Sequence record: NZ_CP086424.1
Source: a plasmid
Direction: 5' to 3' (one strand)
DNA length: 64,000 bases
Shown: piece by piece, positions 9,001 through 12,000 of the stretch
How the letters are laid out: each line of letters begins with the position of its first letter
How positions within the stretch are numbered: the stretch's first letter is position 1
Position numbers: made by a program

Positions 9001-12000
9001 TTTTCGACCCGCTGGACAAAAAGCAAATGGAACTACTCGCCAAGAAGCTGCCTGAAATCAAGCTGGAGCCTGGCGTACAACGGATCACCTATATCGCCAC
9101 AGAGTTCGACAAAGACAAAGGCTGGGATTCCTACAAGAGTGTCACCGACAACTTTGACGCGCCGGTATATCTGCTGACGCCAGATCTGATTACCCGGTTC
9201 GAGCTGGAGCACACACCGAGCGTCATTACTGCCAGAGGCAAGAAGTTTGTTGTCCGCGAACTTGCTGAGGAGGGCGGTGAATGATTTTTGCCCCGGCTTT
9301 CCAACCAATTAAAGACGTCGGCACAGGTTCGTTTGTCGCTGCTGAGGTACTGGCTCGTTGGTACGACGAAGGCCGGGTTCTTACACCATCCTCTCTGTCA
9401 TCTCCTCCTTATTGGGGACTGGTGGATATGGAGATGGCACGGTTCATTCAGGACAACCTTCATTATTGCTTGGATCTGTACCCGGCTCTCTTTCTGAATG
9501 TCTCCGAACAAACTTTGCAATCAGACGTCATCTTCAAGGCGTGGTGTAGGGTTGTCCGCGACATTGCTAAAAATCACTCATCACGGCTTGTCATCGAGAT
9601 TACAGAGGGCATTCAGGACGCCTCTCTCGCATCGAGATGGGAGGCTCTGACCGAAATAGGGGTTGAGCTGGCGCTGGATGACTATGGAGACAAAAACTCT
9701 TCTCTGGATCGCCTGAGCCGTTATGACTGGCACTATTGCAAGTTTGACGCGAGAAGACTGCGGTCGCTTGAAGACTACCCGGCCATCCTCCACTGCCGCC
9801 GAAAAGGCATACAGCTCATTGCTGAGCAGGTGGAGAGCTTCCCATTGGGGGAGAGCGCCAAATTACTTGGACTGTCATGGCAACAAGGTTTCTATCACGG
9901 GAAGCCTGCTGTCATGGAGAAAAATTTGAATTACGTAAAGGCCTTACCATGATGCAAAAAATTCTACGGATCATGGCCGTTAGCGCGGTCTTTTGGGTTG
10001 GTTCGGTATCGGCTGACCCTGGGTGCCAGAATGCGGAAGTGATCGGCGGAAAACTGATTACTGACATCTGCTGGAGCTGTATTTTCCCTATCAAAGTAGC
10101 AGGGGTTCCTATAAGTGGTGGAGGCGGATCATTCCCGAGTGAAGCCGTAAGCAACCCTCTGTGTATGTGCGAGGATAATCTAGGGGTCCCTCGGCCTGGA
10201 GTCACCACTTCTATGTGGGAGCCAGCACGGCTCGTTGAATTTCAGAGAGTGCCTGGCTGCTCATCAGTCTTGAATGGTGTCAGGTTCCCGTTTGATAGGA
10301 CTAACCAAGGGCATCATGGCATGGGAGACATGGATGGTGGTGATGGTTCTTTTATGCACTATCACTACTATGCGTTTCCTCTGTTGGTGATGCTCGATTT
10401 ATTTATTAAGCAGACCTGTAATGCTGATGGGTATATGGATCTCGACATCATGTACATGTCGGAGCTCGACCCGACCTGGAACAATGATGAGCTCGCTTTT
10501 TTTACCAATCCAGAGGCGGCGGCAGTAGCAAACCCAATTGCGGCGGCTGCGTGTACTGCTGATGCTGTCTCATCAACCGCTGGAAAACCTTTAAAACAGC
10601 TTTTCTGGTGTGCTGGTTCATGGGGCACCCTGTATCCATTTAGTGGCAACCAGAATGGTGGAAAAGGTGTTATCCGCGATAGCAGTCTTCTTAGCACAAG
10701 GGTTCTGGCTGCTTTGCATCGCCGGGGGTTAGCGTGGAAGACAATGGGTTCTGAGGCTATGTGTAGAGGCGTTATTAGCCCAACACTACCCAAAACGCAG
10801 TACAAATTCACGCTATTGCATCCGGTTCCAGAGACAAACTCATCTCACGTAATTGGCGAATCCACTCTTACGTGGGGTCTGGCGCGAACTATACCGGCAA
10901 TTGGGCAAGACCCTATTTACACCATCTGGCGATGGAATGATTGCTGTAACAATTGAGCAGACCCTAACGAATTTGCACGGGCATTTTAGATTATGCCCCA
11001 AAAGGGCCACTACACGTACAGGTGGCCCTTGTCTTCTCAGATAGCATGGGAAGGTTGAAATGGAGAACACAATGCGAAGTCATAATTACTTTATGAAAGC
11101 TGTGGCCTCGCTGTTGACAGTAACCATGTCTGCGCTGCCGATACATTCCTACGCTAACGGTAGCCAAGACCAGGACATCACAGCGGTGGGTAAAGAGGCC
11201 CAGGCTTTCGGACAAAACCTCTCAAACTCATTCAAGTCGAGCTCGGGGACTGTGCAAGATGGCACAATCTCTATGCCGACGTTGAAAGACGGTCAATTCC
11301 AAATGAACGGGGGGAGTCAGATTAATGTCAATGATCTATTCCCCGGAACGAGCGGGACCAACAATAAACCTGATAGTTATTACTTCCCTGATGCCAATAA
11401 ACCTGATGTGGGCGGTCTGCAAGGCATTTACGACTCTGGCGATGACATGGACAGCGTGGGGAATAATGCAAAAGGGTCGCTGTGGAGTGATGCCAATAGT
11501 GCTAATCCATCAATCTCTGGTGCGGCATACAAGGTTCTTCTCGATGCCTCTAATCGATCACGCCCTGATTTCAGTAATGACCCGGTACTAAATCTAAGCA
11601 AAAAGACCTATGAGGATATGGACCTCATCGCAGGTGGCTTTGGGGATTGTTCTGCCGAAACAACCATCAATCAGAATACTATCAACGCCCACATTCCAGA
11701 GTATGAACGGTGTCAGCGTGTTGTAGATCAAAGCGCGGACTGTGAGGTTGTCCATGACTACGACGCCTCTGTGGTGAAGCACTATGATGGTCCATATAAC
11801 CTCAAATCTTGTGGAGAAGGCTGTACTGAGTTGTGGATTGGTCGAGTGGGGGACAACTACTGGAGTGGTAACTGCAAGATTTATGAGGAGTACACGCGGG
11901 TCCAAGTCAGCAATCCAGATGCCATAGTGTCTGCAACGCTTGAATACGCCAAGTGGGATGACTACATGCAAGTGTGGGTCGGTAAGTCCGGCCAAGAGAC

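Follow-up and report, generated by a model that had tools for sequence, protein, structure and literature searches.

Why does an operon for the assembly of a conjugative pilus also encode a probable enzyme of second-messenger metabolism? The question is raised by a plasmid stretch of 64,000 nucleotides (nt) from sequence record NZ_CP086424.1 (referred to as a whole as the window), in which a gene for an EAL-domain protein lies between the transfer genes traW and traU. The product of this open reading frame (ORF) is present in RefSeq as WP_000575345.1, 'EAL domain-containing protein', with identical coordinates, and in the reference IncC plasmid pVCR94 the gene is called vcrx082. Judging from the sequence, we lean slightly towards the view that the protein is an active phosphodiesterase of cyclic diguanosine monophosphate (c-di-GMP) that is switched on together with the mating apparatus.

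9281..9952, + strand: EAL gene vcrx082, 223 amino acids (aa), WP_000575345.1; cytoplasmic, single domain

Fold and active site of the EAL protein

The protein matched the Pfam family PF00563 with an E value of 7.1e-25 and a score of 88.2 bits (cut-off 31.3), the match extending over profile positions 13-236 of 236. A model built with AlphaFold2 on 22 family sequences had a mean predicted local distance difference test score (pLDDT) of 90.7 and a predicted template modelling score (pTM) of 0.87. Its best matches in the PDB, as retrieved with Foldseek, were EAL domains (probability 1.00; query-normalised template modelling scores of 0.72-0.79; 19-26% identity). Many of these are complexes with c-di-GMP or pGpG or named phosphodiesterases, including TBD1265, RocR, MucR, YahA and PdeA; the receptor-type proteins FimX and LapD were also matched, at similar scores.

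The sequence-only reading had listed the residues expected of an active EAL domain, and all of them could be aligned by phmmer to the catalytic and metal-binding residues of TBD1265 (PDB ID: 2r6o) and PdeA (PDB ID: 3s83). The aligned motifs are E22-V-L-A-R26 (EAL...R), N73 (conserved Asn), E106-I-T-E109 (ExxE), D133-D134 (DDFG), K154 (catalytic Lys), E182/E185 (AEGVE) and Q202 (conserved Gln). The name-giving motif reads 'EVL' instead of 'EAL', as it does in RocR. The codons for these residues are positioned as follows.

9344-9346, + strand: E22
9356-9358, + strand: R26
9497-9499, + strand: N73
9596-9598, + strand: E106
9605-9607, + strand: E109
9677-9682, + strand: D133-D134
9740-9742, + strand: K154
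9824-9826, + strand: E182
9833-9835, + strand: E185
9884-9886, + strand: Q202

None of the eleven residues varies among 23 orthologues whose identity reaches down to 37%, and in an alignment of 106 family members each catalytic position is retained by 93-97% of the sequences. Residues contacting the substrate are kept as well, namely Q8 of the FQP motif in 102 and R26 in 103 of the 106 members.

Several features of the protein weigh against catalytic activity. Loop 6 has the sequence DDYGDKNSS and departs from the canonical DDFG(T/A)GYSS; the three positions following the Gly are variable among the 106 members, and S140 is kept in 77 of them. The domain lacks the N-terminal helix (Pfam positions 1-12). 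In addition, the usual 'F-I-P-x-A-E-x-x-G' segment is replaced by a stretch with a family-specific invariant Trp45, beside which the position matching the conserved Glu of 'AAEDTGL' in TBD1265 is occupied by Pro or a hydrophobic residue. Loop 6 of RocR has reportedly been linked to activity and dimerisation. From that work and a later classification of EAL domains, proteins whose active site is conserved but whose loop 6 is degenerate are reported to form a class for which activity should not be taken for granted. Because the protein falls into this class, we put the likelihood that it possesses real phosphodiesterase activity near two-thirds and not higher. The non-canonical loop 6 lowers confidence in full activity; it removes no catalytic residue.

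The same departures could be read as signs of a c-di-GMP-binding sensor or 'trigger' with little or no turnover, signalling to a cytoplasmic partner such as TraC, TraD, TraG or a host regulator. EAL domains of the FimX, LapD and YdiV type act in this manner, and the variable loop 6, the missing helix, the invariant Trp45 in place of the canonical segment, the Foldseek matches to FimX and LapD and one UniRef entry automatically named YdiV would all fit. However, receptor-type EAL domains have lost catalytic residues, which are kept here at the frequencies given above in a family reaching down to 25% identity. Their retention is hard to explain unless the chemistry is under selection. Moreover, no data indicate a partner, and the products of the adjacent genes are periplasmic. 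We consider a pure sensor of this kind quite unlikely.

A substrate other than c-di-GMP was also weighed. As an anti-defence enzyme the protein would degrade another cyclic (oligo)nucleotide, for example a defence signal in the donor or in the new host, and what speaks for this is only that the divergent loop 6 and the Trp45 segment lie near the substrate site. To our knowledge, EAL domains are specific for c-di-GMP, and the guanine- and phosphate-contacting residues typical of such domains (Q8, R26 and D133/D134) are kept. None of the PADLOC families was matched by the protein at E <= 0.01, and the gene is located outside of the leading region, which makes a role of this sort very improbable.

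Names assigned to the protein are inconsistent across sources. The UniRef automatic names 'YfgF' and 'YdiV' found no support: none of the NCBIfam equivalogs (PdeF/YfgF, DosP, PdeR, RimA and others) was reached, the best score being 42.5 bits against a cut-off of 1200, and the matches cover the shared EAL domain only. Assignment to the degenerate or receptor-type class (YdiV, FimX, LapD) was likewise rejected, as all catalytic residues are kept. The sequence of WP_000575345.1 is filed in a 90%-identity cluster represented by a TraU protein of 335 aa, evidently a clustering artefact and perhaps one that arose from fused gene calls; it may explain why the homologue search gave no 100% match.

Distribution and divergence of the EAL family

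Many IncC plasmids, from Klebsiella, Salmonella, Escherichia coli, Vibrio, Aeromonas and other hosts, carry the 3.6 kb around the EAL gene with 100% identity, and 828 of the 832 plasmid records that match this region are typed as conjugative. One of the matching plasmids, pTB221, which is typed as IncC, MOBH and MPF_F, is collinear with the window over the first 44 kb. The window is IncC plasmid backbone and not an integrative and conjugative element (ICE) of the SXT type, the elements with which the sequence-only reading had compared it. Plasmid records encoding the EAL protein at >=90% identity (~742) are about as numerous as those encoding TraU at this level (~744); IncC plasmids hardly ever lack the gene.

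Beyond IncC, an exhaustive profile search over 1.84 billion cluster representatives returned 70 family representatives at E <= 1e-30, nearly all of which are stand-alone proteins of ~215-250 aa matching from residue 1. Multi-domain EAL proteins start to appear around an E value of 1e-25, and a representative just outside of the family (P0162, E 1.3e-20) is already an ordinary chromosomal EAL protein encoded beside pyruvate kinase, so that the family has a recognisable edge. A word-indexed search retrieved orthologues graded from 91% to 37% identity, all of ~220-250 aa, sharing 39 invariant columns that include every catalytic residue. In a scan of genome contigs, whose patterns were specific to close orthologues, 4 of the 80 loci held true family members and the remaining 76 generic chromosomal EAL genes with no tra context; the wider family came from the profile search and from contig look-ups.

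Wherever the context was readable (14 of 14 loci, with identities as low as 25%), the EAL gene was found between traW and traU, and as a rule its codons overlap or abut those of its neighbours. The order traW-EAL-traU was observed in the following elements.

IncA plasmid pE51_002: EAL protein 72.6% identical to that of IncC
pAQU-type plasmid pC1579, Vibrio alginolyticus: EAL 39%
Shewanella profunda: EAL 92%
Edwardsiella anguillarum: EAL 53%
Azomonas macrocytogenes: EAL 44%
Pseudomonas aeruginosa megaplasmid pF061_2: EAL 26%, TraU 50%
Metagenomic or draft contigs: EAL 25-40%

Across 10 of these loci, which are non-independent points, the identity of the EAL protein to its IncC counterpart correlates with that of TraU (Spearman 0.96) and TraW (0.90). 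Such co-divergence is the pattern that would be expected of vertical co-inheritance and not of repeated capture of cargo. It speaks against a recent insertion of the gene as cargo, and the variable hotspots of SXT/R391 ICEs were rejected as the class to which the gene belongs, given the IncC replicon and the fixed slot in all 14 loci. Between IncC and IncA the ratio of non-synonymous to synonymous substitution rates (dN/dS) of the gene is 0.16, a sign of purifying selection which, together with the conserved active site, rules out a pseudogene; against the pAQU-type plasmid dS is saturated for all genes, so that no dN/dS is computable at that distance.

One locus in this set (GCA_042661465.1, JBHSWE010000002.1, positions 3746-6690) has traW called as two ORFs and traU, for which no gene is called, recovered by tblastn in two pieces that overlap, while the EAL ORF between them is intact; this suggests a decaying element with frameshifts. 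A further observation concerns the IncC/IncA comparison. Here dS is 0.24-0.45 for vcrx079, trhF and traW, climbs abruptly to 1.12 for the EAL gene and reaches saturation for traU and traN. Such a step suggests that a recombination breakpoint lies where traW meets the EAL gene, or close to it, and that the operon is a mosaic between IncC and IncA.

Evolutionary evidence on the other side is of two kinds. Firstly, the EAL gene changes faster than its surroundings: its dN is two to six times that of the neighbours, and the protein is 72.6% identical between IncC and IncA versus 87-94% for TraU, TrhF and TraW, and 39% identical between IncC and the pAQU-type plasmid versus 58-82% for the neighbours. 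Secondly, relatives exist that do without it. The SXT/R391 ICEs have no EAL gene and their traW, traU and traN are contiguous (PMC4542580). The same holds for the IncT plasmid Rts1, where orf216 (traW) and orf217 (traU) are consecutive, and for two plasmids with AcaB-family regulators, E. coli p027_SK3a and Klebsiella oxytoca pKOX-ea2b, where traW runs directly into traU. The TraU proteins of the latter two are 46-48% identical to that of IncC, a distance similar to that of P. aeruginosa pF061_2, which keeps the gene. SXT/R391 and Rts1 are experimentally transfer-proficient; pKOX-ea2b is merely typed as conjugative and p027_SK3a as mobilizable.

Judged from presence and absence rather than from trees, one early gain followed by several losses is the simplest history. 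The gene is dispensable for building an F-type/MOBH secretion system and is an accessory module of one large A/C-like MOBH/MPF_F clade; since the secretion system can be assembled without it, the contribution of the EAL protein must be modulatory or ecological, and any contribution to transfer modulatory at most.

Faster evolution than the flanking core genes and absence from sister lineages that still transfer are also what one would expect if an active phosphodiesterase had been inserted long ago as host-manipulating cargo, its benefit lying in carriage or host fitness (offsetting the cost of tra expression, or colonisation) and not in mating. Genes of c-di-GMP metabolism do ride on mobile elements, as illustrated by the diguanylate cyclases of SXT/R391 and the EAL-domain urf2 of Tn21-like transposons. 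Cargo, however, usually resides in variable, mobile regions, whereas the EAL gene has kept one slot with overlapping codons and has diverged together with TraU and TraW. It is, besides, silent without the regulator AcaCD, so that the protein is able to act only when the transfer genes are on. An old cargo gene of this description seems to us unlikely, although it is the alternative that we take most seriously.

Expression within the transfer operon

The EAL gene belongs to the predicted operon extending from dsbC (vcrx077) to traU (vcrx083) (PMC4207636), and the published operon map includes vcrx082 (PMC4542580). A peak of AcaCD binding, determined by chromatin immunoprecipitation with exonuclease treatment (ChIP-exo), is located upstream of dsbC (PMC4207636). 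RNA sequencing put the expression of vcrx082 at 401 in the wild type; the value was 1 when acaCD was deleted and 2085 when the complemented strain was induced (PMC4207636 Dataset S1), and the gene was differentially expressed in both comparisons (PMC4207636). No sigma-70-like promoters were found on the + strand inside the operon, and terminator-like sites there were not above the chance expectation. Given this AcaCD dependence and the lack of an internal promoter or terminator, the EAL gene is expressed solely within the transfer regulon.

The overlaps with traW at the start of the gene and with traU at its end, noticed from the sequence alone, were confirmed. The EAL start codon ATG (9281-9283) overlaps the traW stop codon TGA (9282-9284) as ATGA, and the EAL stop codon TGA (9950-9952) overlaps two in-frame candidate starts of traU, ATG 9949-9951 and ATG 9952-9954, the overlap being 4 or 1 nt depending on the start chosen; the coordinates of pVCR94 use 4 nt. 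The missing N-terminal helix cannot be recovered from a start codon farther upstream, as the ORF already uses the earliest one that follows a stop. The EAL gene is preceded by a Shine-Dalgarno-like sequence which, by inspection, is the closest to the consensus among the start regions of the operon.

9267..9274, + strand: Shine-Dalgarno-like sequence GAGGAGGG, within the 3' end of traW; its GGAGG core stops 7 nt short of the EAL ATG

In contrast, traU is preceded by a weak AAAGG only. Since traU also overlaps the EAL stop codon, its translation would rely on ribosomes that terminate at the end of the EAL ORF, which probably couples the synthesis of TraU to that of the EAL protein. Transposon-insertion data on the EAL gene would be confounded by polarity on traU.

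The weak Shine-Dalgarno-like sequence of traU, overlapping the EAL stop codon, and the strong GGAGG of the EAL gene could also mean that the ORF is a translated spacer bringing ribosomes to a weakly initiated traU, the protein itself being irrelevant. This would leave the conservation of eleven catalytic residues across 106 diverged homologues and the dN/dS of 0.16 without explanation, and in elements lacking the EAL gene traU couples directly to traW. A mere spacer is extremely unlikely.

The order of genes in the window, dsbC-traC-orf-trhF-traW-EAL-traU followed by a separately transcribed traN, is that of the IncA/IncC mpf2a operon. The corresponding order in SXT/R391 ICEs is dsbC-traC-s093-trhF-traWUN, with no EAL gene (PMC4542580). 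The neighbouring features are listed below.

3912..3935, + strand: terminator-like hairpin with a T-run (10-bp stem, 6 GC pairs); strong
4046..4753, + strand: dsbC (vcrx077), from annotation; first gene of the mpf2a operon, preceded by the AcaCD-dependent promoter
4750..7197, + strand: traC, type IV secretion ATPase
7212..7529, + strand: vcrx079, ORF of 105 aa with no Pfam match, conserved in the operon
7526..8056, + strand: trhF, S26 signal-peptidase-like (PF10502, E 4.8e-18)
8019..9284, + strand: traW, 421 aa; its stop codon TGA 9282-9284 overlaps the EAL start codon
9949..10956, + strand: traU (Pfam E 2e-98); start at ATG 9949 or 9952, followed by a signal peptide
11060..13867, + strand: traN, downstream limit of the operon holding the EAL gene

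The hairpin ends the upstream unit, which holds a gene for an Ig-like domain protein, and thereby delimits the dsbC-traU operon on its upstream side. In the protein called TraW, a TrbC_Ftype domain (residues ~105-230) is fused to a TraW domain (residues ~220-415), as has also been noted for orf216 of Rts1. Downstream of traN, two ORFs on the minus strand adjoin it, 13906-14766 (286 aa, like vcrx085/sfx) and 14889-15530. The surface exclusion gene sfx (vcrx085) sits between traN and acaB (PMC11493245), and the second ORF is probably acaB, both assignments being made by position alone.

Outside of the operon, the window and pTB221 differ in two places. The window lacks a copy of the insertion sequence IS421 at 29723-29735, whereas pTB221 carries one near 29.7 kb, and the two diverge after 44341, where the IS5075, Tn3-family and class 1 integron genes of pTB221 begin. 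Sequences of ~80-126 bp recur in the intergenic backbone at 16676-16832, 21542-21691, 30270-30347 and 39796-39907 (91-100% cross-matches between the window and pTB221) and may be repeated promoter or regulator-binding modules.

Relation to known systems and possible role in conjugation

The gene as such is not new: hundreds of records carry its annotation, and it is named in the operon map of pVCR94, where it has the same position between traW (vcrx081) and traU (vcrx083) with no difference in sequence; by enzyme class its product is an ordinary EAL domain. Not described, as far as found, are the extent of the family, the strict conservation of its position between traW and traU reaching into Pseudomonas megaplasmids, and any functional test. 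With the active EAL proteins TBD1265, RocR, PdeA/CC3396, YahA/PdeL and MucR the product of vcrx082 has in common the fold and the set of catalytic and metal-binding residues; from the solved EAL phosphodiesterases it differs in overall sequence (19-26% identity), the absent N-terminal helix, the divergent loop 6 and Trp45. The nearest parallel in logic is the E. coli protein PdeH (YhjH), which is, like it, a single EAL domain devoid of a sensor domain, and for this reason control of vcrx082 must be exerted at the level of expression. The solved EAL proteins and PdeH belong to flagellar or other chromosomal regulons, whereas vcrx082 is encoded in an operon for a type IV secretion system.

Interference with host c-di-GMP by mobile elements of the MOBH/MPF_F superfamily is seen in SXT/R391 ICEs, which encode the diguanylate cyclases DgcK and DgcL (Bordeleau et al. 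2010, as cited in PMC3915882 and PMC4542580). The comparison with hotspot cargo of SXT-type ICEs, drawn in the sequence-only reading, holds in so far as these cyclases reside in variable hotspots of some ICEs; it breaks down in that they synthesise c-di-GMP through GGDEF domains, whereas vcrx082 encodes an EAL protein of the degrading type and occupies a fixed slot in the core mpf operon. Other EAL ORFs carried by mobile elements, such as xeal of IncX1 mrk plasmids, MrkJ-like genes and urf2 of Tn21-like transposons, lie outside of transfer operons. The first of these has been described as degenerate, and vcrx082 is unrelated to all of them by sequence (<=30% identity). Matches on E. coli and Salmonella plasmids at 24-30% identity are annotated as EAL-domain proteins, on annotation alone.

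How might a phosphodiesterase serve a conjugative plasmid? When AcaCD fires, a cytoplasmic EAL phosphodiesterase would be made in step with the periplasmic pilus-assembly proteins, and c-di-GMP would be hydrolysed to pGpG specifically in the cells committed to transfer. The resulting fall in the c-di-GMP pool, whatever its size, would turn down c-di-GMP-dependent outputs (matrix polysaccharides, curli, adhesins and motility brakes) in cells about to mate. Such matrix, adhesin and sessility programmes may hinder pilus function or the formation of mating pairs, or otherwise put the donor at a disadvantage. That a phosphodiesterase hard-wired into the pilus operon is a step of the mating programme, as was proposed from the sequence alone, is a reasonable hypothesis, strengthened by the AcaCD-dependent operon, the fixed slot and the co-divergence with TraU and TraW. 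The companion proposal, that the protein directly regulates a neighbouring Tra component, has little likelihood in the case of TraW and TraU, which have signal peptides and are periplasmic, whereas no signal peptide was found in the EAL protein, the AlphaFold2 model of which is a compact soluble domain. On the same grounds a secreted or periplasmic EAL protein acting on TraW or TraU was rejected.

To the considerations that tell against an active enzyme serving transfer must be added that no functional study, enzyme assay or mutant phenotype of vcrx082 was found in the searchable full-text literature, the coverage of which is incomplete; the sole mention found there was the name of the gene in an operon list or map. 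We would go further only tentatively, and at less than even odds, in proposing that the EAL lineage is a co-evolving, translationally coupled component of the F-type/MOBH transfer operon of A/C-like elements which predates the split of IncC, pAQU-type plasmids and Pseudomonas megaplasmids, and that lowering (or reading) c-di-GMP is a selected step of conjugation. Possible roles would be the clearing of matrix or adhesins, giving the pilus and TraN access to recipients, or the gating of a cytoplasmic ATPase of the secretion system. Either role would constitute a direct second-messenger input into the conjugation of major multidrug-resistance plasmids, undescribed as far as found. If, on the other hand, the protein were inactive or its loss free of phenotype, vcrx082 would be an ordinary accessory ORF. 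The slot is deeply conserved in one set of elements and lost in SXT/R391 and IncT, which provides a natural comparison for the contribution of the enzyme.

Among the vehicles of carbapenemase and multidrug resistance genes, IncC plasmids are of major importance, and they also mobilise islands of the type of Salmonella genomic island 1 (SGI1). If the EAL protein is active, activation of AcaCD is accompanied by a drop in c-di-GMP in every cell in which it occurs. This would tie plasmid transfer to the decision between biofilm formation and motility in hosts such as Vibrio cholerae, Klebsiella and Salmonella.

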